A stretch of DNA of 64,000 nucleotides from a virus (IMGVR_UViG_2703718833_000007:1-64000), one strand, 5' to 3'. Positions 15,855 through 59,361 are shown, counted from the first letter of the stretch. Notes: generated by a model not told the origin, from the sequence alone. Program-made: numbers and translations.

Positions 15855-16338
15855 CAGGTTATTAGCCTGCGTTTATGTCGCCGTTTTCGTGATCATCAAC
15901 CTTATTGTTAACCATTGCGGCCCGTGGGTAATTCCGATCACCACGGTAGCCGCTGTGTGTGTCAATATGATGATCCGTGACTTCTTGCTGTATGACGGCG
16001 GCTTGAAATGGTCTGCTACAACATGCGCCGCCGCTGGCGCAATCACGGTAATGATAAATTACGATGCTGGAATGGTAGCGATCGCGTCATTCGTTGCGGT
16101 TGTTTCCGGTGCGCTTATATCTGGAGGTGTTTACCGGGTTTTGCCTGGTGATTTCGATTCTAAGCGCTGGCCTGCAAACATAGCTTCAGCCATCGGGGAT
16201 GCGTTAATTTTCCCGACGCTATCGTTTATGGCGTTTATGCCGGAAATATCAGCGATGCAGTTTATCTCAAAAATGGCAGCGGTAACGGTGATCACTATCA
16301 TCATGCGCCGCTATTTCACGTTTGAGGGTAGAAAATGA
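15835..16338 (+). CDS. integral membrane protein, possible YhhQ-like queuosine-precursor transporter family
   Basis: 167 aa, multiple TM helices; segment VYRVLPG..SKRWPANIASAIGDALIF resembles a conserved region of YhhQ-family transporters as recalled; tentative. Confidence 0.3.
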   Translation: MKKVAIDRLLACVYVAVFVIINLIVNHCGPWVIPITTVAAVCVNMMIRDFLLYDGGLKWSATTCAAAGAITVMINYDAGMVAIASFVAVVSGALISGGVYRVLPGDFDSKRWPANIASAIGDALIFPTLSFMAFMPEISAMQFISKMAAVTVITIIMRRYFTFEGRK

Positions 16339-16862
16339 ATTGGGATGATTATTTTATATACAATCCGGACACAGGTAAGTTGTACTGGAAATATAGAAAT
16401 GACATAGAAGAATCAAGGCGTAAACAATGGAATGCGTGTAATGCTGGTCATGAGGTTGGACATATTGGCGGAAGCGGTGGGTGTCTTAATACAGCGCTTA
16501 CCGTTGGCGGAAAGCGTTATAATTTAAAAGTACATAGAATATGTTACGAGATGTACTATGGGCCAATACCTGAAGGTAAGGAGGTTGATCATATAAATCA
16601 CGTTAAAACAGATAATCGAGCCGTCAATCTTGGATTAAAAGACCATAAAGATAATATGCGCAACATGTCTTTAATGGTAAACAATACCAGTGGGTGCGCT
16701 GGTATCCATAAAAATAAACATGGTAAATGGGTTGTTAGAATCGGTGGAGGCAAAAGAGGTAATAGAATTTATATAGGGTGTTTTTCTGATATCAATGACG
16801 CAATAAAAGCTAGGCGCGACGCTGAAAGAAAGTATGGCTATCATGAAAATCACGGCAAATAG
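16335..16862 (+). CDS. HNH endonuclease with AP2 domain, copy 2
   Basis: VDHINH...N HNH_3 motif, AP2-like segment, C-terminal KYGYHENHGK. Confidence 0.8.
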   Translation: MNWDDYFIYNPDTGKLYWKYRNDIEESRRKQWNACNAGHEVGHIGGSGGCLNTALTVGGKRYNLKVHRICYEMYYGPIPEGKEVDHINHVKTDNRAVNLGLKDHKDNMRNMSLMVNNTSGCAGIHKNKHGKWVVRIGGGKRGNRIYIGCFSDINDAIKARRDAERKYGYHENHGK

Positions 16863-17121
16863 AACAACCACGCCACCGCCGCGCGGCTTTGCCCGTGCTG
16901 TATTCCTGGCTAACGACCGGGCCATCAATCGTGCTACGCTCAACCGCGTTTTACCGGACTGAAATTTACAAAATGGCGTCATTGCGTGATGTGGATCACA
17001 TAATGGCGCTTTTCACCTTGTTCTGACGTATCCGTTTTGTATACTTCAAACAAGCAAAATGCTCTTTAAAAATCCGGCAGCGCTGAAATGCGTAGAAATC
17101 ACCTGAAAAGGAGAGAGCATT

Positions 17122-17298
17122 ATGCCTTTTGATAATTACCAATGGCATGACGACTATGAACGAGAAAGCGTCATGCGTGCAATGTGCAATGTATGCAGCA
17201 CGAAGAAAGGAGACTGCAACGAGTGCAACGAATGTTTAGATCATTGGCTAAGGGCCGGACACGCCGAAAGGCGGAGCGAAACAGAAAATCAAAAATAA
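17122..17298 (+). CDS. small Cys-rich protein (58 aa)
   Basis: CNVC...CNEC pattern; AAAAGGAGAG RBS; below track cutoff. Confidence 0.3.
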   Translation: MPFDNYQWHDDYERESVMRAMCNVCSTKKGDCNECNECLDHWLRAGHAERRSETENQK

Positions 17299-17312
17299 TC
17301 GGGGTGATTTTT

Positions 17313-17918
17313 ATGCAGAACCCTAAAAAACCCATAAGACGCCGTTGCAAATGCTGCGGCGTTTTTTTTGAACCTAAATATCACAATCAAACGTGGTGCA
17401 GCGATGAATGTCTGGAAGAACTGAAGTTTGATCAGCTATGCCGCGATCGTGAAAAGGCTATGAAGGCTATGGAGCGGAAGAAACGCCGCGATAGCCAGCG
17501 TGAGGAACGCAACCGGAAGCGGAAGCAGTTAAATCCGCGTAGTTATTGGTTAAAGCAGGCGCAAAACGTGTTTAACGCATATATTCGCGAACGTGACGCA
17601 GGACAGCCGTGTATATCTTGCGGGACTTATTATTATGAGCAATGCGGAGCAGATGCGGGGCATTACAGGACGGTAGCAGCAGCTGGACACCTTCGATTTA
17701 ACGAGGATAACGTAAACCTACAATGTCGACATTGCAATCAGGTATTAGACGGAAACATAGAGGCATATCGTCCGGCACTGATTCGAAAAATTGGCCTTGC
17801 CAGGGTGGAGGCGTTGGAGAACAACAACGAAACCCATAAATGGACGATCGAAGAATGCAAGGAGATCATTAAAGTTTACCAGGCGAAATTGGACGCCCTA
17901 AGGAGAAAGGCGGCATGA
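17313..17918 (+). CDS. ninG: NinG/Rap-family recombination-associated protein
   Basis: 201 aa; multiple Cys/His clusters; recalled similarity to lambda NinG; GGGGTGA RBS. Confidence 0.65.
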   Translation: MQNPKKPIRRRCKCCGVFFEPKYHNQTWCSDECLEELKFDQLCRDREKAMKAMERKKRRDSQREERNRKRKQLNPRSYWLKQAQNVFNAYIRERDAGQPCISCGTYYYEQCGADAGHYRTVAAAGHLRFNEDNVNLQCRHCNQVLDGNIEAYRPALIRKIGLARVEALENNNETHKWTIEECKEIIKVYQAKLDALRRKAA

Positions 17919-18322
17919 ATGAATATACATTTAGCCTACCTTACCCGCCATCGAATAATAGGTATTACCGGCATTCACGAGGTTTTCATTATATCAGTAA
18001 AGTGGGGAAAGAATACCGGGAACAGGTAAGAGACATCATCGAGCTATTAAATTTAAACATCAACCTATCTTGCCGACTGGCAATTACCATTCATGCCGCG
18101 CCGCCGGATAACCGGATAAGAGATCTGGATAATATCACCAAATGCCTTTTTGATAGCCTTACTTACGCCGGATTCTGGACCGACGACGGGCAGATCGATT
18201 CTATAAAAATTGTTCGCTGCCGGAAGGTAAAAGGCGGGCGCTTGTTTATTAAGATCCGCGAACGCGGCGACCTACTACCGGATATTGACGAATACGAGAC
18301 TAATATGTGGGGTGAGCAATGA
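17915..18322 (+). CDS. rusA: RusA-family Holliday junction resolvase
   Basis: 135 aa; RusA-like pattern; AAGGAG RBS. Confidence 0.7.
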   Translation: MNEYTFSLPYPPSNNRYYRHSRGFHYISKVGKEYREQVRDIIELLNLNINLSCRLAITIHAAPPDNRIRDLDNITKCLFDSLTYAGFWTDDGQIDSIKIVRCRKVKGGRLFIKIRERGDLLPDIDEYETNMWGEQ

Positions 18323-18501
18323 AAAACGAAGTTAAAGATCTGCAAATAGATATTCAGTGCGATGAGCATGATTTAGCTACAGTCAGAAAAATCCAGGCTT
18401 TTCATATGCGAGAATTGCTTGCATTGAAAGAGCTTGAGAGGAAGTTAGTCCAGTCTATTTCTGATCGTAAACGCCTTATTGCTCGTTACGGGGGCAAATA
18501 A
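18319..18501 (+). CDS. hypothetical protein (60 aa)
   Basis: Coupled ORF. Confidence 0.35.
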   Translation: MKNEVKDLQIDIQCDEHDLATVRKIQAFHMRELLALKELERKLVQSISDRKRLIARYGGK

Positions 18502-19223
18502 TGAATCTGGAGTCAATTCTTAAATTCCACTTCCCAAAATCACCGCATTTGTCAGATGAAAGTCGTGGCACGTCACCGGACGCGCTTAATACTACGGATG
18601 CGCTAACTGCCGCTGGTATGGCGCAATCGCGCGTAGAGCTTGGTTATAGCGCTTTTTTAGGGAAGATGGAACTATCACAAGCCGAAAAGCACAGGGCCGT
18701 AGTTTTGCTTACAGAGCGTTTAAGAGCTATGGCAAAAGATTATAAATACGTTATGGAACTGGACGAGGTGCGACGAAATGATCTCATTATTCTTGTTGCC
18801 GTTTTCGCATTTCGGGATTATTGCCAGAGTGCCGCGACGGAAAAAACTTGTATGGAGTGCGGCGGATATAAATTTACGTTTGACGAGTATGGGGAAAAAC
18901 ACCTTTGCAAAAAATGCAAGGGGCATGGGAAAGTTCTTAATCATTGCAAACAATGCAAGGGCCGTGGAGAAGTGCCTGATAAAGCAGCCAGCGAAGCGGC
19001 GGAAATGCCCGTGTTCAAAACGTGCCAGCATTGCGGCGGGCGCGGGTACTCGCGTTTCCCTGTAGATCTTGTCCGGCAGGCGGTTAATCAGCTTGTCTTT
19101 CCTGTAAGCCGATCAACATGGTGGAAGAAATACCGTGCTTTCTATGAAGACGCCATTGCTGAATTGTTCAAAGAAGAGGCGCGGGCTGATAACGAAATTA
19201 AACGAGTGACGCGGGGTGAATGA
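18501..19223 (+). CDS. DnaJ-type zinc-finger protein in late-antiterminator (Q) position
   Basis: 240 aa; four CxxCxGxG repeats; located after nin-like genes where lambdoid Q lies. Confidence 0.4.
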   Translation: MNLESILKFHFPKSPHLSDESRGTSPDALNTTDALTAAGMAQSRVELGYSAFLGKMELSQAEKHRAVVLLTERLRAMAKDYKYVMELDEVRRNDLIILVAVFAFRDYCQSAATEKTCMECGGYKFTFDEYGEKHLCKKCKGHGKVLNHCKQCKGRGEVPDKAASEAAEMPVFKTCQHCGGRGYSRFPVDLVRQAVNQLVFPVSRSTWWKKYRAFYEDAIAELFKEEARADNEIKRVTRGE

Positions 19224-19423
19224 TGGATAAGCTGGAAATAAACGATAAGTTTGCCGTTATCTTGTTCGAAGATAAAACGGGCGGTGCTTGGTGTAAGAAA
19301 GTTACTGGTGCTGAAGCGCGTTTAATATTGGGCATGGCAAGCGCATTAAACGAAGGTGAATTGCCAGCCGTGCCAGTTAAGCCAGTACATATTTACGGAC
19401 GGAGCAAAGACAATGAAGCCTAA
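19220..19423 (+). CDS. hypothetical protein (67 aa)
   Basis: ATGA overlap with upstream gene. Confidence 0.35.
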   Translation: MMDKLEINDKFAVILFEDKTGGAWCKKVTGAEARLILGMASALNEGELPAVPVKPVHIYGRSKDNEA

Positions 19424-19682
19424 ATTAAAAGAACATCTATTTGCAAAGCTGGTTAATGACCTGACGTTATCAGCGCGGTTGTGCGGTGATACGCAACAAT
19501 TGAGGGCATGGATAGCAAGGGATTTAAAAAAATATATTGAGCCTGGCGGGCCTGGTGACGAAATGACTATGGACAAGGCCATCAATCGCCGTTCGGCTGA
19601 ATGGTCAGTGAGTAACACCGGATTAACCGGATACATTGAAGGCTATAACGACTGTTTACAGGATCATAGCGATGGCAAATAA
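19413..19682 (+). CDS. hypothetical protein (89 aa)
   Basis: Start at ATG 19413 with GGAG RBS. Confidence 0.35.
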   Translation: MKPKLKEHLFAKLVNDLTLSARLCGDTQQLRAWIARDLKKYIEPGGPGDEMTMDKAINRRSAEWSVSNTGLTGYIEGYNDCLQDHSDGK

Positions 19683-19971
19683 ACACTTACATTTGAATTT
19701 AAAAGGAGAATACTTCCACGCTATCAGGGCGGGGAAGAAGGTCGAGGAATACCGGCTTTATAATGACTATTGGCGCAAACGCCTTGAGGGGCGCGACTAT
19801 ACAAGATTGATTCTTAAATGGGGATACCCTGCAAACGACGATAAGGAAAGAATCCTTGTTCTCCCTTACATGGGGTACAAGATAAAGACTATTCAGCATC
19901 CTTTGTTCGGTGATGAACCTGTTAAGGTTTTTGCTATCCACTGCGATATTTATTGGCAATATAGGTTTTAG
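19672..19971 (+). CDS. ASCH-domain-like protein
   Basis: IRAGKKVEEYR matches ASCH GxKxxExR-type motif; start ATG overlaps upstream stop. Confidence 0.45.
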   Translation: MANKHLHLNLKGEYFHAIRAGKKVEEYRLYNDYWRKRLEGRDYTRLILKWGYPANDDKERILVLPYMGYKIKTIQHPLFGDEPVKVFAIHCDIYWQYRF

Positions 19972-19974
19972 AAT

Positions 19975-20187
19975 ATGAAAAGTAACCGCAAGCGCCTTGT
20001 AAGGGCATACGACAAAGCATTAAAGGCTTTTGATGATCTGCGACGCAATAAGCGCCAGCGCCGTAAAGTTGCGCGCATGTTTGTAAGGTGGTTGCATAAT
20101 GAGGATTATTTCCTTAATGCTAGGCACATGACGCAGGATGTAGCAGACGCATTGGCTGACGAGAACGTTTATTATATGATGTGGTGA
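19975..20187 (+). CDS. hypothetical basic protein (70 aa)
   Basis: Operon-context ORF. Confidence 0.35.
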   Translation: MKSNRKRLVRAYDKALKAFDDLRRNKRQRRKVARMFVRWLHNEDYFLNARHMTQDVADALADENVYYMMW

Positions 20188-20191
20188 TAAT

Positions 20192-20557
20192 ATGCAAATA
20201 ATCATTGATTATCTTTGCCATGCTGCAAATACAATTTTTGGCATGTATCAACAACCATTCCTTCAGGAATGGGATGATATGCTAAACGACATCCTCGACA
20301 AAGGATTAATAATGGATGTTGACGAGCTTACAATCAGATTTAATTATGAGGGTGAAGAATATCTAATTTGGGTTGGTAATAGATGGTATTCATACGGTCA
20401 TATTTATTCAATTGGTGGTAAGTTCATTAAAAGAAACCAGGAATTTAGACCGCGCTTCCGCACAATGCGCCGCCTGCATGATCTGCATATGAAATTATTC
20501 GAAGATCAGGAAGCACGGGAATTATTCAAAATTTACGGGGATAAATCATGGAGCTAA
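20192..20557 (+). CDS. hypothetical protein (121 aa)
   Basis: Operon-context ORF. Confidence 0.4.
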   Translation: MQIIIDYLCHAANTIFGMYQQPFLQEWDDMLNDILDKGLIMDVDELTIRFNYEGEEYLIWVGNRWYSYGHIYSIGGKFIKRNQEFRPRFRTMRRLHDLHMKLFEDQEARELFKIYGDKSWS

Positions 20558-20778
20558 AAATCTGGCAGGCTATCGACGTGGTTGATAACGAATTATCTAT
20601 GTTTGCCACTGACGGGAAACGCGTGGTGATCGCTACATGGACACGCAACCACGATGATATTGCTTTTCGTCGCAAGGCGGCGGAATGGCTTTTCTCTGAT
20701 GGCGGCTACACGATGAACATCGCACAGCTTGCCAGAATGAAAGATGAAAAGCTGGTGGACAGCTACACAACTGCGTAA
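20548..20778 (+). CDS. hypothetical protein (76 aa)
   Basis: Operon-context ORF. Confidence 0.35.
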   Translation: MELKIWQAIDVVDNELSMFATDGKRVVIATWTRNHDDIAFRRKAAEWLFSDGGYTMNIAQLARMKDEKLVDSYTTA

Positions 20779-20788
20779 TGGGGTAAAT

Positions 20789-21019
20789 ATGCGTATCTAT
20801 GAGCACAAGCGGGATAAAACCCGCTTTTTTGTTCGTGCTGGCGTGGCGTACCAGTATCACGAATGCGGTTACATTGAGGCGCTTGCTTACGATCTGGACT
20901 TCGAGCAAGAAAAGGCATGGTTCGATTTTAAAATTTACCGTAAGCGCAAACCTACGCGCGACGAGCGCCACGCTATCCGGGACTTTTTAATCAGCATTGA
21001 GCGTTGGGAGTCAGATTAA
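20789..21019 (+). CDS. hypothetical protein (76 aa)
   Basis: Start at ATG 20789. Confidence 0.35.
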   Translation: MRIYEHKRDKTRFFVRAGVAYQYHECGYIEALAYDLDFEQEKAWFDFKIYRKRKPTRDERHAIRDFLISIERWESD

Positions 21020-21246
21020 TGAAAGTCAAATTCTTGCACGATCACGGTTATCCATCACTGAAACAGGTTGTTGGTAAGGTTGTTGATGTAGTTCATAGCG
21101 ATAATGTCACTTGCATGATTAACGGTGCTGACCTAATTGCCGCTGGCGCTGATGACCATTACATAAATCCGGCATGGTCGTATACGTTCAGCCTGGGCGA
21201 CTTCGTTGGCGACAAGGGGCGCGGGCTGGAAGTAGTCGAGGGTTAA
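21019..21246 (+). CDS. hypothetical protein (75 aa)
   Basis: TAATG overlap; GGGAG RBS. Confidence 0.35.
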   Translation: MKVKFLHDHGYPSLKQVVGKVVDVVHSDNVTCMINGADLIAAGADDHYINPAWSYTFSLGDFVGDKGRGLEVVEG

Positions 21247-21250
21247 CATC

Positions 21251-21499
21251 ATGGACGTTTACGAAGATCTATACCTCCAGACAGACACCAACACTTTTTA
21301 TTTTCTTAAAAACGGCGTCGTGTATCGCAGTGACGACGGGGTGATAATGAAAGAGTGGTTATTTAAGCGTGAAGACCTACTCGACGATCTGGTTTTTGCC
21401 GGGGTATTTCGTAAACGTCCGGCTAACATGAAAGAAGAGATGTTGATTGAGGTTATTAAAAATGAAAATCAGGGTAAGTTATTTCCGGGCGAAAGATAA
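21251..21499 (+). CDS. hypothetical protein (82 aa)
   Basis: Operon-context ORF. Confidence 0.35.
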   Translation: MDVYEDLYLQTDTNTFYFLKNGVVYRSDDGVIMKEWLFKREDLLDDLVFAGVFRKRPANMKEEMLIEVIKNENQGKLFPGER

Positions 21500-21713
21500 G
21501 GCAACAGGAAAGCAGGTGGCGATCCTGGTTAACGAGGCGCAGTACATGTTTGTCCTTCAACCGTGGTGTATAGCTGACTATAACGATGATTATCGCCGTC
21601 ACGCTGCGCGGAGTGCTGTAGGAATGAAAGGATGGCAGCCGCGCGACATGGAAAACTATTGTGATTGGAAATTGGTGGCAAAATACACGGTAGACTATAA
21701 AGGGGTTTTCTGA
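21462..21713 (+). CDS. hypothetical protein (83 aa)
   Basis: Start at ATG 21462 with GAGGT RBS; overlaps upstream ORF by 38 nt. Confidence 0.3.
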   Translation: MKIRVSYFRAKDKATGKQVAILVNEAQYMFVLQPWCIADYNDDYRRHAARSAVGMKGWQPRDMENYCDWKLVAKYTVDYKGVF

Positions 21714-21715
21714 TT

Positions 21716-21931
21716 ATGTTTGCAAGATGCGTTTACTCTGACACTGCGTGCTTTACTGTTGGTGAATTATATAGCGTTGATCTTCTTAACGGGTGCAAGC
21801 GCGGCGCTGGCGGCATTCATTATGTAAAGGATAATGATGGCGATGCGTGGCAAATTTACGGCGATCATGCAAAGTGGGCTGTTAAGGGAAGTTTTGACAA
21901 TCGCGTGATGGCGCGTTTTGTTAAGTGGTAA
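21716..21931 (+). CDS. hypothetical protein (71 aa)
   Basis: Operon-context ORF. Confidence 0.35.
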   Translation: MFARCVYSDTACFTVGELYSVDLLNGCKRGAGGIHYVKDNDGDAWQIYGDHAKWAVKGSFDNRVMARFVKW

Positions 21932-21977
21932 TGTCGTTTACATCAATAAATGTGATCTACCACGCAAAGTTTACGAA

Positions 21978-22343
21978 ATGGCATTGTTTCGGCAGTGCCA
22001 TTTTGTTATATATAAGCCACTGAAAGACGGATGGTGCAAAATCATGAAAAGCGACAAATTCATTGCGTGCTGTTTTGTTGAAGTGCCTAAAGGTGATTTT
22101 TTCTTCAATTATGAATTTAAAGATAGTTTAGGAAGATCTCATGTTGTCGCTGGTAAGCGTGGAGACTGGTTGTATATCACTGATGGGGACAGGATCTTCA
22201 CTAAAAACCAGTTATTCAGAATAAAGGCAGAAAATAATGAAATACCAGTAGGCAATATGGGGATTATGAATTATCACGCTGGTTTATCGTTAAAGCACGA
22301 TGCGGTAAATAAAGCGCGTAGCTTACCTGGTGCGGAGTTTTAA
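21978..22343 (+). CDS. hypothetical protein (start ambiguous: 21978 or 22044)
   Basis: Track ORF begins with non-ATG codon; first ATGs at 21978 and 22044. Confidence 0.3.
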   Translation: MALFRQCHFVIYKPLKDGWCKIMKSDKFIACCFVEVPKGDFFFNYEFKDSLGRSHVVAGKRGDWLYITDGDRIFTKNQLFRIKAENNEIPVGNMGIMNYHAGLSLKHDAVNKARSLPGAEF

Positions 22344-22345
22344 TT

Positions 22346-22600
22346 ATGGTTGTGATCAGACTATGGCGCGGCAATAGCCGATTTGATGGTGAGTACGTCC
22401 GCGTGATTGAAGATGTTAATCGTGGTCGGTTTTATGAATTGGTATACAGCGAAAAAAGGGAGAAAGAATATCTGAACGAATCGACCCCTATGTGGCGTAA
22501 AGTGGCTGGCCTTGCCTTAATTCTGCGCCGCGGGTTTTATACAGATCACAACACACTAACAGATGCGGAACTAGTGACAATTCTTTACAAAGGAGAATAA
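22346..22600 (+). CDS. hypothetical protein (84 aa)
   Basis: Operon-context ORF. Confidence 0.35.
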   Translation: MVVIRLWRGNSRFDGEYVRVIEDVNRGRFYELVYSEKREKEYLNESTPMWRKVAGLALILRRGFYTDHNTLTDAELVTILYKGE

Positions 22601-22603
22601 CAA

Positions 22604-22927
22604 ATGTCTAAATTTATCAGCGTTAATGTTTTCCGTGGCAATTTTCCAGAAGATAAAGAAATTGGACAATTCGCAGGTGAACGTGGCGTATGTTTCCGTG
22701 TAGCTACTGAAGACGATGCGCACGTTAAATGCTTTCACGTATCTGAACCGCCTTTTAATGCAGACCATCTTGAAGACCTGAATAGAATTAAAAGCCTTAT
22801 TTTTGCTTATCTGGCGTTCCCTGGTATTGGTGATACTGATGTCGAATTACTTGGCGCTGAACTGTTTGCGGAATACAAAATGACTGAAGGGGTAGAAGGG
22901 GGAATTGAAATTGAGCGCATCAAATAA
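22604..22927 (+). CDS. hypothetical protein (107 aa)
   Basis: Operon-context ORF. Confidence 0.4.
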   Translation: MSKFISVNVFRGNFPEDKEIGQFAGERGVCFRVATEDDAHVKCFHVSEPPFNADHLEDLNRIKSLIFAYLAFPGIGDTDVELLGAELFAEYKMTEGVEGGIEIERIK

Positions 22928-23162
22928 GCTGTATAAAGTCATGTGTAAAGGTGAATATCATGGCTTTACGGTTGGTTGCGAATACCTGGGCCACATTGGG
23001 TACGGCCCTTTCGGTGAACTGGGAATGAATACGATGGACGACGATGGAGACAGCAGGACGCTTGATCTTGATTCTGATGATTTCGAATACATCCCGCCGG
23101 TAACTTACCGCGACGTTGATGATTTCCTGGCTGAACATGAAGACGAGGACGATGATGATTGA
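22905..23162 (+). CDS. hypothetical protein with acidic C-terminal tail
   Basis: C-terminus EHEDEDDDD; start uncertain. Confidence 0.35.
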   Translation: MKLSASNKLYKVMCKGEYHGFTVGCEYLGHIGYGPFGELGMNTMDDDGDSRTLDLDSDDFEYIPPVTYRDVDDFLAEHEDEDDDD

Positions 23163-23352
23163 ATGCCTTATTGCTGTGATTGTTTTGCTTTATATCGCTG
23201 GCGCGATCCTGATGTCATGTTTTATTAAGGTTAGCGGCGCTGAACATGGTGGCCTTGAGATTCCCTTCTGGCCTGTATTGGTTTTTCTCGCTTTCTTTGA
23301 TGCTACGGTAGTGCAGATCAAGCGAGCCATTAAGGAGCGCAAGAATGATTGA
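23152..23352 (+). CDS. small membrane protein (two TM helices)
   Basis: Hydrophobic segments; start overlaps upstream stop. Confidence 0.35.
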   Translation: MMIECLIAVIVLLYIAGAILMSCFIKVSGAEHGGLEIPFWPVLVFLAFFDATVVQIKRAIKERKND

Positions 23353-23527
23353 AGATGGCATCTATGGTGTAAACCTTATTGAAAACGTATTTTACATGGT
23401 TGATGGCGATACCGTGACAATCAGCGTAAACGGTGGTGAATATGTAGAGCCATTCTTCAAAACAACAAAGGAAGACATTAAGCGAAGCGTTGATAAAGGC
23501 GTACTATTTAAGGTTGGCGAACTATGA
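23345..23527 (+). CDS. hypothetical protein (60 aa)
   Basis: Operon-context ORF. Confidence 0.35.
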   Translation: MIEDGIYGVNLIENVFYMVDGDTVTISVNGGEYVEPFFKTTKEDIKRSVDKGVLFKVGEL

Positions 23528-23700
23528 GCGAGATAGAAGACGGTATCTATTTTCACAAGGTATTTAACATCGTCTATTTACTTAGAGGTGAATCGGTGAT
23601 GATAAAACCTGATGATGATCCGCATTGGGAATCAAGCGACATGGATCGGTGGCATATGCAAACATTGCTAGATAATGGCCTGATATACAGAAAGCAGTAA
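23524..23700 (+). CDS. hypothetical protein (58 aa)
   Basis: ATGA overlap; below track cutoff. Confidence 0.3.
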   Translation: MSEIEDGIYFHKVFNIVYLLRGESVMIKPDDDPHWESSDMDRWHMQTLLDNGLIYRKQ

Positions 23701-23765
23701 AGCCGTATTTGTGGAGCGAAAACAAACAGATTAAAATATTCTCTAACAATGCGAAACTGTAACTA

Positions 23766-23787
23766 CCCGGCCCCGCGCCGGGTTTTT
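23766..23787 (+). terminator. rho-independent terminator immediately upstream of lysis cassette (tR-prime-like)
   Basis: CCCGGC-CCCGC-GCCGGG hairpin followed by TTTTT, about 20 nt before holin RBS. Confidence 0.5.
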
Positions 23788-23807
23788 GCTTTGTTGGAGG
23801 TAAATCT

Positions 23808-24008
23808 ATGTTCGAAAGAATACGGGAGGCGTGTGCGTATGTGGCTGGTGCAGTAACCGCTTTTTTCGGCGCGATAACCATCAATGACGTTGCCGTCTTT
23901 GTGGGTATCTTATCAACCATTGGCACATTTGCCGTTAACTATTACTTCAAATCACAGGAGAACAAGAGGGCGCAAGAGGAACACGACGCACGAATGGGGA
24001 ATAAGTAA
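23808..24008 (+). CDS. pinholin (phage 21 S-like class II holin)
   Basis: 66 aa, two TM helices, charged C-terminus; precedes SAR endolysin; GGAGG RBS. Confidence 0.65.
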   Translation: MFERIREACAYVAGAVTAFFGAITINDVAVFVGILSTIGTFAVNYYFKSQENKRAQEEHDARMGNK

Positions 24009-24009
24009 C

Positions 24010-24501
24010 ATGATTAGCCAATCGCTGAAAAACCGACTAACTAAGGCGGCGGCTGGTGGAACGTTAGCCATTGCATCTGTTTTGCTTGTATGGGTTGAGG
24101 GTACGGCTTACGAGCCTTATTACGATACCGGAGGCGTGCTAACTGTATGCAATGGCATAACCGGCCATGATGTTGTCCCTGGTAAGAGATATACACCGGA
24201 TGAATGCGAGAGACTTTTGCAAAAGCATTTAACCGTTCACAAAAAGGCGGTTGATCGTTATGTAAAAGTTGACATGAATGATTATCAACGCGCAGCGCTA
24301 ATTAGCTTTTCATACAATATCGGGGTTGACGCTTTCAAAAAATCAACCTTGTTAAAAAAAATAAACAAAGGCGACTTTAAGGGAGCGTGTAAGGAGATGG
24401 ATCGCTGGGTGTATGACAATGGGAGATATATACAAGGCTTAAAGAATCGTCGCGATATTGAACGTGCTATATGTGAATGGGGCGTAACCAATGGAAAGTG
24501 A
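24010..24501 (+). CDS. SAR endolysin (GH24 phage lysozyme with N-terminal signal-anchor-release helix)
   Basis: 163 aa from ATG 24010; weakly hydrophobic Gly/Ala-rich N-terminal helix; lysozyme motifs recalled as similar to phage 21 R. Confidence 0.8.
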   Translation: MISQSLKNRLTKAAAGGTLAIASVLLVWVEGTAYEPYYDTGGVLTVCNGITGHDVVPGKRYTPDECERLLQKHLTVHKKAVDRYVKVDMNDYQRAALISFSYNIGVDAFKKSTLLKKINKGDFKGACKEMDRWVYDNGRYIQGLKNRRDIERAICEWGVTNGK

Positions 24502-25012
24502 TGATGAACTAAAACGAAAGCTACACTACGATCCAGCGACAGGTATTTTCACCTATAAGATTAGTCCTCACGGGAGAATCAAGGCCGGAAGCGTAGCCGG
24601 GTGTAAGCATAAAAGCGGATACATACACATAGGAAGATATAAAGCGCATCGCCTTGCGTGGTTTTTCCATTATGGAGTGTGGCCCGAAAAGGACATTGAC
24701 CATATTAATGGAATAAAAACCGACAACAGGATAGTAAACCTGCGAGAAACAGATGATGCGCATAACTGCAGAAACAAGAAACATATTGCCACTCACACAT
24801 TGTCTGCATTCAGGGGTGTTAGCTACCACAAAACAGAGAGAAGCAAGCCTAAATGGCGAGTAAGAATTACCGACAATGAAGGTAAGCGTATATCTATTGG
24901 TTTATTTGACTCACTAGACGAAGCGATCGCCGCTCGCATTTTGGCGGAAAACTTTTTCTATGGTGAATATGCACCTTCGATGGGTTGCGAGGGTGAAACA
25001 TGGACAAGGTGA
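24491..25012 (+). CDS. HNH endonuclease with AP2 domain, copy 3 (divergent), inserted between endolysin and Rz
   Basis: IDHINGIKTDNRIVNL HNH_3 motif and AP2-like RGV...W segment. Confidence 0.7.
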   Translation: MESDDELKRKLHYDPATGIFTYKISPHGRIKAGSVAGCKHKSGYIHIGRYKAHRLAWFFHYGVWPEKDIDHINGIKTDNRIVNLRETDDAHNCRNKKHIATHTLSAFRGVSYHKTERSKPKWRVRITDNEGKRISIGLFDSLDEAIAARILAENFFYGEYAPSMGCEGETWTR

Positions 25013-25470
25013 AGACGTTAATCATCGCCGCTGTTGTTTGCATCATTGCCGGGCTTGCTGCCGTAACGTGCTATTACCAGGGTGAAACGGCAAGGTTGCA
25101 GGAAGAAGTCACGGTGACGAAAGGCGCGCTAAAAACAGCAAGTAACACTATTCAGCAGATGAAGGAGCGAAACGCAGAACTGTCAAAACTTGATAAGAGG
25201 TATCACGATGAGATTAAAGCTATCAGATCTGACATTGCCGATCTGCGCACTGGCATTGATAACGGCACTATCAGGCTGCGCGTCAACGCAATACCAGTGC
25301 GAGTGTCCGACTCCACCGGAACCGCCAGCCGCATTGATGGAGCCTCCTGTAGACTCACTCCCGACGCTGAATCGGCTTATCTATCCCTCAGAGAACAACT
25401 AAAAGAGAAAGATGCGAAGATAACCGCGCTTCAGGGCTACATCAAAACGCAGTGCTTACGCAAAGAATAA
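25000..25470 (+). CDS. Rz-like i-spanin
   Basis: 156 aa; N-terminal TM helix, coiled-coil periplasmic domain; contains embedded Rz1 frame. Confidence 0.7.
   Translation: MDKVKTLIIAAVVCIIAGLAAVTCYYQGETARLQEEVTVTKGALKTASNTIQQMKERNAELSKLDKRYHDEIKAIRSDIADLRTGIDNGTIRLRVNAIPVRVSDSTGTASRIDGASCRLTPDAESAYLSLREQLKEKDAKITALQGYIKTQCLRKE
25208..25402 (+). CDS. Rz1-like o-spanin (lipoprotein embedded in Rz, alternate frame)
   Basis: 64 aa; signal peptide with LSGC lipobox, proline-rich mature region. Confidence 0.7.
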   Translation: MRLKLSDLTLPICALALITALSGCASTQYQCECPTPPEPPAALMEPPVDSLPTLNRLIYPSENN

Positions 25471-25750
25471 CAGCGCGTGGACGTGTCGCCGTTTCTGCCA
25501 GCCAGCCATAACCGGGCCAATCCTTCCCGCGAGCGACGGCGGAAAAGTCAAAAACACGTAATACCGGATGCACGTCATCCCATTAACAGGTCAGGCGCTA
25601 CCTGGGTAGAAGAAAGCGCCACCCACCAGTTTATAAAATTCTGCAAACGTTACTCACACAGCGCCGTTTTCAGTGTTTTATAGCTGTTTTCACTCCCTGC
25701 TGTGTCCAGTTTTGCGGGGGTTATATTTTTCAGGATAGAGGAATATTCTG

Positions 25751-26335
25751 ATGGCTAAGGCTAAAGGCATTAAGTTGCCTCAATTCAAAGTCCCGCTCTT
25801 TGAGCATACAACAGTTTTCTTTTGCCCGACCCGCGACATGTTCTATGAATTTTGCGAAAAGGCAGGGATCCCAATCGAACCTGATTTCGAACTGGCAGGA
25901 GGATTAACACTTACTTGCACTGGCGAGAAAGGCGGTAACTTCTACGTGATCGCAGTATTCGACAATGAGTTAGGAACTCTGGTGCATGAAGCGGCCCACA
26001 CTACGTTTCACGTATTAAGTGATGTAGGCGTAGTGGCGACCACTGATCCCAGCCATCCGGCAAACGAGACTTATGCTTACATGGTAGGCCGCATCTTTGA
26101 TGCTTTCTTCCCCATCCTGGCGGAATCAAATGAAGCACAGGTGGCAGCAATGCAGGCAGCTGAAGTCGTAGAGAAGGCATTAGAACAGGCAGAAAAGGCG
26201 ACTGATGCAGCAGAGCAGGCAGTAGAGCAGGCAGAGGAGCCGAAAGAAGAGAAAAAACCAGCTAAGAAAGGCAAACGTAAGCCTAAAGCAAAAGAGGCGC
26301 TTGTACCGCGTATTATGAGCTTTAAACGAGGCTGA
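25751..26335 (+). CDS. hypothetical protein with HExxH motif and Lys/Ala/Glu-rich C-terminal tail
   Basis: 194 aa; LVHEAAHTTFH contains HEAAH; basic low-complexity tail. Confidence 0.4.
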   Translation: MAKAKGIKLPQFKVPLFEHTTVFFCPTRDMFYEFCEKAGIPIEPDFELAGGLTLTCTGEKGGNFYVIAVFDNELGTLVHEAAHTTFHVLSDVGVVATTDPSHPANETYAYMVGRIFDAFFPILAESNEAQVAAMQAAEVVEKALEQAEKATDAAEQAVEQAEEPKEEKKPAKKGKRKPKAKEALVPRIMSFKRG

Positions 26336-54749: not shown

Positions 54750-54871
54750 GCAGGTGAATGCAACGTCAAGCGATGGGCGTTGCGCTCCATATTGTCTTAC
54801 TTCCTTTTTTGAATTACTGCATAGCACAATTGATTCGTACGACGCCGACTTTGATGAGTCGGCTTTTTTTT
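54750..54871 (+). ncRNA. fnrS: FnrS small regulatory RNA
   Basis: Between zntB and dbpA; begins GCAGGTGAATGCAACGTC and ends with GCCGACT...AGTCGGC hairpin plus T8; matches recalled FnrS locus. Confidence 0.6.
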
Positions 54872-59151: not shown

Positions 59152-59361
59152 TTAATTTGAATACAATGCAATTCTCGAGGACTGAAGTTTCTCGCAATTA
59201 AAATTTATCAGTTTTACTTTCTGCTCTCTGGAAACGCCTGCTTCTTTTTTACCTGAGAGCATTTTTTCGCATTCTGATTTCGTTAGTTTAGATTTTGAAT
59301 ATCTTGTCCAGTTAGTAGGAGTGCCACCTTCCTTTTCAATAGTGGCGGTAATTTTATACAT
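59152..59361 (-). CDS. rcbA: Rac small protein RcbA-like
   Basis: Track ORF 93 aa; likely 69 aa from MYKITATIEK; assignment from recalled Rac gene order. Confidence 0.5.
   Translation of the reverse strand: MYKITATIEKEGGTPTNWTRYSKSKLTKSECEKMLSGKKEAGVSREQKVKLINFNCEKLQSSRIALYSN

Follow-up and report, generated by a model that had tools for sequence, protein, structure and literature searches.

The window, the whole 64-kb stretch of DNA that was analysed, is an E. coli prophage of the mEpimmI type, a group of temperate coliphages common in the human gut. Between positions 17000 and 25500 it is 86–91% identical, over 58–81% of the length, to the phages mEp554, mEp044, mEp010, mEp013, mEp515, mEp021 and MagusPhagus. 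To our knowledge, early (N-like) antitermination is the only form of antitermination that has been studied in mEpimmI phages, which have been labelled 'Nus-dependent non-lambdoid'. The genes ninG (17184–17918; PF05766) and rusA (17915–18322; PF05866) are followed on the plus strand by a conserved ORF of 60 amino acids (18319–18501), which matches phrog_18514 with E=1e-25 and keeps its position in a distant relative, L052. The stop codon of this ORF overlaps the start codon of the next (TAATG), which encodes a protein of 240 amino acids and runs from the ATG at 18501 to the TGA at 19221–19223. The original prediction had described this protein as a DnaJ-type zinc-finger protein that follows rusA and occupies the place of a Q antiterminator; the ORF is real and lies on the plus strand, but the 60-aa ORF stands between it and rusA.

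Downstream of this gene, referred to below as the Q gene, about 18 small, tightly packed ORFs on the plus strand occupy positions 19220–23700, in agreement with the ~4.5 kb of small ORFs that had been noted earlier. The first of them begins within the Q stop codon (ATGA, 19220–19223), and the array continues without gaps to 23700. None of the array ORFs matches a family in Pfam, and all but one of their PHROG matches carry the description 'unknown function'. The lysis genes that had been placed after the array are confirmed by Pfam (PF16080, PF00959, PF13392, PF03245 and PF06085 across the region). They comprise, all on the plus strand, a holin as the first late gene (23808–24008), an endolysin of the lysozyme type (24010–24501), an inserted HNH endonuclease ORF (24491–25012) and Rz (25000–25470), with Rz1 embedded at 25190–25402. 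The holin gene has a ribosome-binding site, GGAGG, at 23796–23800 and starts with the ATG at 23808. As the Q stop codon and the next ORF overlap, the Q gene is followed by no promoter gap; from Q to the lysis genes, non-coding sequence of any size is confined to 23701–23807. Rfam and tRNA scans returned nothing in this region.

Upstream of Q, the plus strand at 17060–17093 carries a boxA-like sequence, TGCTCTTTAA, followed by a small hairpin (GCGC-TGAAAT-GCGT), and the whole segment is nearly identical in mEp021. The nutR2 site of mEp021 lies between an upstream gene and a ninF-like ORF, a position that agrees with 17060–17093, and an N-like antiterminator and three nut sites have been described for the mEpimmI group (PMC11893012). 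The segment is thus probably nutR2, the site at which the N-like protein would act upstream of Q.

The 240-aa protein scores 100 bits against Pfam PF03589 (cut-off 26.7; E=8e-29) and matches PHROG 127 ('anti-termination protein Q-like') over its full length with E=1.5e-78. Its best match in the PDB is lambda Q (7UBM chain Q, E=9.4e-39), and lambda Q is also the only clear structural match to the predicted fold. The two proteins are collinear: residues 1–114 align to residues 1–114 of lambda Q at 87.5 bits, and residues 148–238 to residues 117–207 (HMMER). The alignment takes in the N-terminal residues 1–60, which antitermination requires. The body of lambda Q is helical and contains a helix-turn-helix (HTH) motif (PMC9388147); the same helical body fold with an HTH, which defines membership of the Q-lambda family, is found here, and the AF2 model has helices at 188–198 and 204–237. 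The Pfam scan at E<=0.01 gave no match to the Q21 (PF06530) or Q82 (PF06323) families. The protein thus almost certainly belongs to the Q-lambda family, and the sequence comparisons bear out the earlier suspicion that it is the late antiterminator, a role that is well supported by its homology to lambda Q over the full length (PF03589, phrog_127, 7UBM_Q). It is an ordinary member of the family and its identity is not new: public records already name it 'putative late gene regulator Q' (mEp021 gp37) or 'antitermination protein (Q)' (NCBI).

In lambda Q, the N-terminal 44 residues form, together with NusA, a ring that narrows the RNA-exit channel and is supported by C-terminal residues, while the zinc-ribbon arm (residues 114–152) touches the Q-binding element and the zinc-binding domain of the β' subunit of RNA polymerase (PMC9388147). 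Every working part of lambda Q has an equivalent in the 240-aa protein. Codons 1–44 (18501–18632) correspond to the segment that refolds with NusA into the torus, or nozzle, at the RNA-exit channel, and this is the best conserved part of the protein. Residues 149–183 (18945–19049) are equivalent to the lambda zinc ribbon, with C149, C152, C175 and C178 in the places of lambda C118, C121, C144 and C147. Residues 184–238 (19050–19214) are C-terminal helices of the Q body and align to lambda Q 153–207, the part that holds the HTH. In a set of 25 long-form homologues with 31–96% identity, eight cysteines, the equivalent of G39 and T237 (lambda T206) are invariant; V6 of lambda is replaced by isoleucine, a conservative change. 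Among 45 relatives, dN/dS is 0.04–0.07, a sign of strong purifying selection on the gene. It was found in 35 of 5,426 complete E. coli genomes, and 250 of 50,697 phage records hold a relative (tblastn). These include a short form of 207 residues (lambda, P22, HK022, HK620) and longer forms of 250–275 residues (phi80, ES18, SfV, Fels-1 and Stx2c phages).

Since residues 1–114 and 148–238 are collinear with lambda Q, the 33 residues between them, 115–147 (18843–18941), are an insertion. It carries two additional cysteine knuckles, C117xxC120 and C136xxC139, at the base of the zinc-ribbon arm. This insertion is missing from the Q proteins of lambda and P22 and is present in a longer version in phi80 Q and ES18 gp73; 33 residues is the shortest length among the long forms seen. 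The four motifs that had been read as CxxCxGxG repeats are where they had been placed (C117MECGG, C136KKCKGHG, C149KQCKGRG and C175QHCGGRG), but only the last three are of that form, the first being CxxCGG. Because the eight cysteines are invariant in the 25 homologues, the knuckle pattern is not due to chance. The knuckles are separated by 19, 13 and 26 residues; the last distance, between knuckles 3 and 4, is identical to that in lambda Q, the length varies between knuckles 1 and 2, and it is constant between knuckles 2 and 3. The insertion segment has two alleles within the phage group, and the protein accordingly has 240 or 242 residues. The cysteine pattern fits that of the zinc ribbon in the Q-lambda family and predicts a metal site; the two zinc sites may be nested (knuckles 1+4 and 2+3) or placed side by side.

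The label 'DnaJ-type' does not hold as a family assignment. The matches to DnaJ_CXXCXGXG (PF00684; 26.7 bits against a Pfam cut-off of 32.7) and to the NCBIfam model DnaJ_bact (23.6 bits against a cut-off of 377) both fall short, and neither a J domain nor the DnaJ C-terminal domains are matched in Pfam at E<=0.01. The zinc ribbon of lambda Q, which consists of two CxxCxGxG knuckles, gives the same weak DnaJ match, and the resemblance is therefore a property of the Q-lambda family. The likeness is at the level of the motif only, the 240-aa protein having two pairs of knuckles instead of one. Like the cysteine-rich domain of DnaJ (PF00684), it has four knuckles of the CxxCxGxG type, which presumably bind two zinc ions; unlike in DnaJ, the knuckles are set in a Q-lambda body that has neither a J domain nor C-terminal substrate-binding domains.

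In the gap before the holin gene, the plus strand contains a series of elements that together resemble a Q-dependent late promoter, PR'. A predicted −35 hexamer, TTGTGG (23709–23714), which is weak, is separated by a 17-nt spacer, AGCGAAAACAAACAGAT (23715–23731), from a predicted −10 hexamer, TAAAAT (23732–23737). The spacer, which contains AAACAAAC, is the place where a Q-binding element is expected; its likeness to the annotated phi80 site TCGCGGA is loose (GCG, an A run and a C) and to the lambda site there is none. After a discriminator, ATTCTCT (23738–23744), a second −10-like hexamer, AACAAT (23745–23750), occupies the positions +1 to +6 and is predicted to be a sigma-dependent pause element. 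By analogy with the P22 annotation, we infer that transcription starts near 23745 and that the polymerase pauses near 23760–23761. A 14-nt linker, GCGAAACTGTAACT (23751–23764), leads to an intrinsic terminator, tR' (23765–23792), which has the stem ACCCGGC/GCCGGGT and the loop CCCGC. The terminator that had been reported before the lysis genes at 23766–23787 is thus present, but its hairpin spans 23765–23783 and its T run extends to about 23792. It corresponds to the annotated TERM_5 of mEp021. Its hairpin begins ~20 nt after the predicted start, and it ends 16 nt before the holin gene.

The arrangement was expressed as a composite signature, TANNNT, 6–7 nt and AAYNNT, with a strong intrinsic terminator 25–120 nt further on. 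In both strands of the 64-kb window this signature occurs a single time, at 23732; the hexamer pattern alone is expected by chance about 0.02–0.03 times per 100 nt before a given terminator. The late promoter is most probably located at 23709–23750, with its terminator at 23765–23792. Inspection of 19.2–23.8 kb, proposed earlier as the region in which to look for the late promoter, gave a promoter and pause signature directly upstream of the terminator already noted, but no Q-binding element that could be named. Provisionally, the late promoter would lie upstream of this terminator and not beside Q. A generic promoter match at 23649 (GTGGCA-16-GATAAT) was rejected because several relatives have unrelated DNA upstream of 23700. 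The accessible literature on the mEpimmI group mentions a Q-lambda-like protein (PMC11893012) but not its target.

The block before the holin gene was compared in 47 mEpimmI-type loci, two from phage records and 45 from IMG/VR contigs, whose Q proteins are 82–97% identical. It is conserved in 45 of them, always once and directly before the holin gene; the other two contigs have no match. Among the relatives, the block lies between 1.9 kb (mEp021) and 6.7 kb from the Q stop codon; in the window the distance is 4.5 kb. The 47 loci yield 30 distinct versions of the block, in all of which the −10 hexamer, TAACAATGCGAAA (with the pause hexamer), the hairpin stem and the spacer sequence AAACAAA..GAT are invariant. 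The 7 nt before TAACAATGCGAAA vary, as do the hairpin loop, the upstream flank and the −35 half; the discriminator occurs as ATTCTC, ATTACC, ATTTCC or ACTTCC. About a quarter of the relatives have an almost non-matching sequence in place of the −35, and so does L052. The arm alleles of Q (240 and 242 residues) showed no association with the two −35-half variants. In L052, whose Q is 49% identical, the order is ninG, rusA, an ORF of 61 amino acids, Q, ~3 kb of small ORFs beginning at the Q stop codon, a gap of 110 nt and the holin gene. The gap has a different sequence and the same form: TATAAT-TCCCTC-AATAAT, a hairpin 23 nt further on, and a T run.

The signature was also applied to 74 loci encoding long-form Q proteins in other Enterobacterales genomes, which are 29–40% identical to the Q of the window and had not been used in defining it. 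It is found within 200 nt of the Q stop codon in 48 of the 74, typically 25–76 nt after the stop. At the background rate of 0.014 per 230 nt, about one of the 74 loci would be expected to carry the signature by chance; it accompanies Q genes 46 times above background. A Citrobacter prophage whose Q is 40% identical shows the classical arrangement: TTTACA-17-TAATCT-GAAACC-AATGAT and a terminator come directly after Q. The −10, linker and pause sequences are TAAATT, TGACTC and AACGAT in the PR' of lambda and P22, TAGATT, CATCTCT and AACGCT in phi80, TAATAT, CGTTTCT and AACAGT in ES18, and TAAAAT, ATTCTCT and AACAAT in the window. The second hexamer of lambda and P22, which covers +1 to +6, acts as a sigma-dependent pause element, and the layout of the block in the window agrees with that of these other PR' promoters. 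The Q gene and its target have been drawn side by side as a 'Q-dependent regulatory cassette' (PMC9388147, Fig. 1A); in the window they lie 4.5 kb apart, which is a trait of the gene layout and not of the protein. The two-hexamer-plus-terminator signature could be reused for the annotation of late promoters.

By analogy with lambda Q, the gene is in all likelihood the late antiterminator of the mEpimmI-type coliphage and would act at the promoter block before the holin gene. In the proposed mechanism, the early rightward transcript would be kept terminator-resistant by the N-like protein Gp17, acting at the nut site ~1.4 kb upstream of Q, and terminator-resistant transcription would pass through ninG, rusA, Q and the ORF array. 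As early transcription would run through the array, its ORFs would be co-transcribed with Q as delayed-early genes, independent of Q action. Q would bind the spacer of the late promoter (23709–23737) and capture the polymerase held by sigma70 at AACAAT (23745–23750), paused ~16–17 nt after the start near 23745. [quoted passage not shown] The sequences themselves show the family membership, the conservation of the functional parts, and where the promoter, pause and terminator signature lies and how well it is conserved; for binding, pausing, read-through, the point at which transcription starts and the time at which the array is expressed, we infer by analogy with lambda Q and mEp021.

The late promoter might instead lie right after Q, where GTGACG, 16 nt, TAAGCT, GGAAATA and AACGAT are found at 19206–19246; the array and the lysis genes would then form one Q-dependent operon, and the terminator at 23765 would be one of several that are read through. 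The hexamer pair of this look-alike (19228–19246) begins 5 nt after the Q stop codon, near the place where the signature is found in 48 of the 74 other loci, and AACGAT is exactly the lambda pause hexamer. Its GGAAATAAACGAT is unchanged in all relatives with the same downstream ORF, though nearby synonymous sites vary, and with a lax definition of the terminator 11 of 48 relatives score the composite there. The look-alike is, however, wholly contained in the next ORF, so that a transcript starting there would begin downstream of that ORF's start codon, and the window has no strong terminator after it. Synonymous changes alter its −10 (TAAGAT, TAAGTT, TAAACT, CAAGTT). As a conserved element it failed across the 47 relatives: it is missing in mEp021, where another ORF follows Q, destroyed (AACATG) in L029, L033, L034 and L047, and absent from the distant relatives L052–L055 and L059. 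With 38 matches in 128 kb, the expectation for the hexamer pattern alone in the window is about 0.07 per 230 nt. A late promoter directly after Q is therefore improbable. The constancy of GGAAATAAACGAT in the loci that carry the downstream ORF is a small point in its favour.

Slightly less improbable, but still unlikely, is a reading in which the block before the holin gene is an ordinary promoter with an attenuator-like leader terminator, or simply the end of the early operon, and Q acts elsewhere. In favour of this reading, some relatives have a weak −35 or none, no Q-binding element can be recognised by sequence, and the terminator at 23765 would by itself make a suitable end for early transcription on which the N-like protein has not acted. 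A plain promoter, on the other hand, gives no reason for an invariant TAACAAT at the spacing of a sigma-dependent pause element; the two-hexamer-plus-terminator form is enriched 46-fold beside Q genes elsewhere, and no other promoter candidate is conserved across the phage group. Least probable of all, and already contradicted by the family comparisons, is that the protein is a DnaJ-like chaperone, another zinc protein or an inactive relic, and that the late genes are reached by read-through of N-modified early transcription. The presence of the N-like antiterminator with its three nut sites in the group (PMC11893012) would accommodate such a scheme, and the weak DnaJ_CXXCXGXG and DnaJ_bact matches speak for it; both are below their cut-offs, without a J domain and shared with lambda Q. 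The agreement with lambda Q extends to the whole length and the fold, and a relic would not be expected to show strong purifying selection and invariant functional residues.

With Q acting at the promoter block before the holin gene, the layout, in which Q and its predicted target are kilobases apart, is the one departure from the textbook picture. It needs no new mechanism, because Q acts in trans. A more far-reaching interpretation, which we put forward tentatively and consider less probable than its opposite, is that the Q cassette has been split. In this arrangement, Q would be part of the early operon and translationally coupled to a highly variable array of 2–7 kb, while its target would have stayed with the lysis genes. 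The array would be a dedicated delayed-early accessory compartment, its expression tied to Q and independent of Q action, and the terminator would serve both as the target of Q and as a barrier between early transcription and the late genes. If the cassette is indeed split in this way, the array may be devoted to host takeover or anti-defence. The split layout would extend over the mEpimmI phages and the relative with a 49% identical Q, and offers a natural case in which Q and its predicted target are kilobases apart, as opposed to the adjacency seen in most other members examined. The analysis also provides a concrete predicted position for the mEpimmI late promoter, pause site and terminator. 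Its main result, that the 'DnaJ-like' protein is a lambda-type Q, clarifies more than it surprises.

Compared with lambda Q (PF03589; PDB 4MO1 and 7UBJ–7UBN), the protein is collinear over its whole length at ~34–40% identity and has the same N-terminal exit-channel ring segment, helical body with an HTH region and four-cysteine zinc ribbon. It differs in the 33-residue insertion, with its two extra CxxC knuckles at the base of the arm. The target has the same form in both phages, a promoter, a −10-like pause hexamer at +1 to +6 and a terminator, but the TTGACT element that lies between the −10 and the pause hexamer in lambda is missing in the window. The distances also differ: the Q gene and the promoter are 4.5 kb apart in the window and ~80 nt apart in lambda, and the terminator follows the start by ~20 nt in the window and by ~170 nt in lambda.

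The Q proteins of phi80 (gp17) and ES18 (gp73), which are ~37–40% identical to that of the window in a MAFFT alignment and 31–36% by tblastn, also have four cysteine knuckles, owing to an insertion at the same place that brings in the same additional cysteines. Their insertions are longer, ~47–62 residues compared with 33, and the third knuckle is CxC instead of CxxC. The hexamer layout of their PR' is very like TAAAAT-ATTCTCT-AACAAT, but it is found 40–80 nt after the Q stop codon. The phi80 record annotates both pR' and a Q-binding site, and DNA binding by phi80 Q was reportedly studied by Guo and Roberts in 2004. A short distance between start and terminator is also found in P22, where the annotated terminator, t-late, follows the start of the late RNA at P-late by ~30 nt; a terminator so near the pause site is therefore workable in the Q-lambda family. 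The P22 antiterminator, gp23, differs from the protein described here in being a short, 207-aa form with a single zinc site, and its gene adjoins its promoter. The terminator of the window, at ~20 nt, is closer to the start than that of either P22 or lambda.

The late antiterminator gene Q (18501-19223), a member of the Q-lambda family, occurs as two alleles in the phage group (loci L007-L051), which differ in the inserted zinc-knuckle segment (window 18849-18941, codons 117-147). The allele CGGYKFTFDEYGEKHLCKKCKGHG gives a 240-aa protein and the allele CGGHGHLPNPYCEYTSTICARCGGKG a 242-aa protein, while outside the inserted segment the two are near-identical. The -35 half of the predicted late promoter likewise has two variants, but across these loci they show no linkage to the 240- and 242-aa alleles.

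The first ORF past Q contains the sequence GGAAATAAACGAT (window 19228-19246), which is similar to the lambda-type pause element and is invariant in all relatives that have this ORF; synonymous sites near it do vary among the relatives. This invariance could be due to chance, to a constraint imposed by translation start, or to the element being a vestige. A second sequence resembling a lambda-type late promoter, with a -10-like hexamer followed by a pause-like hexamer (TAAAAT-TCTGCA-AACGTT, 25634-25651), is found downstream of Rz, in the space before a 194-aa ORF that starts at 25751. It is found again in many relatives, approximately 1.4 kb past the main block of predicted promoter, pause element and terminator, and is followed there by a terminator.

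Within the array of small ORFs that separates Q from the predicted late promoter, the 82-aa ORF at 21251-21499 is 96% identical to gp41 of the related phage mEp021, which is annotated in the mEp021 record as a virion structural protein; a position outside the late operon would be odd for a virion protein gene. In the middle of the array, the ORF at 20744-21019 contains a strong hairpin, AAGCGGG-ATAAAA-CCCGCTT, that runs into a stretch of T residues (TTTTG; 20807-20826 for the whole element); in mEp554, another related phage, the predicted terminator T9 occupies a comparable place within the array.

At the right end of the window, Rfam matches were obtained to the host sRNA FnrS (54750-54867) and to RalA, the antitoxin sRNA of the Rac prophage (59177-59355). 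This end is therefore E. coli chromosome adjoining Rac, and the mEpimmI-type prophage stops before approximately 54.7 kb, in agreement with reports that phages of the group integrate at ydaM.

Upstream of the ninF-like ORF, a boxA-like sequence, TGCTCTTTAA, is followed by a small hairpin (GCGC-TGAAAT-GCGT; 17060-17093 for the whole element). The mEp021 counterpart is nearly identical. The element probably corresponds to nutR2, a site known from the description of that phage.

Two ORFs of the window encode HNH_3 endonucleases, and both look like homing-endonuclease insertions. One (24491-25012, also with a weak AP2 domain) is located between the endolysin and Rz genes, an interval that is empty of genes in mEp554 and mEp021; the other (16335-16862) stands where mEp021 carries its cytosine methyltransferase gene.
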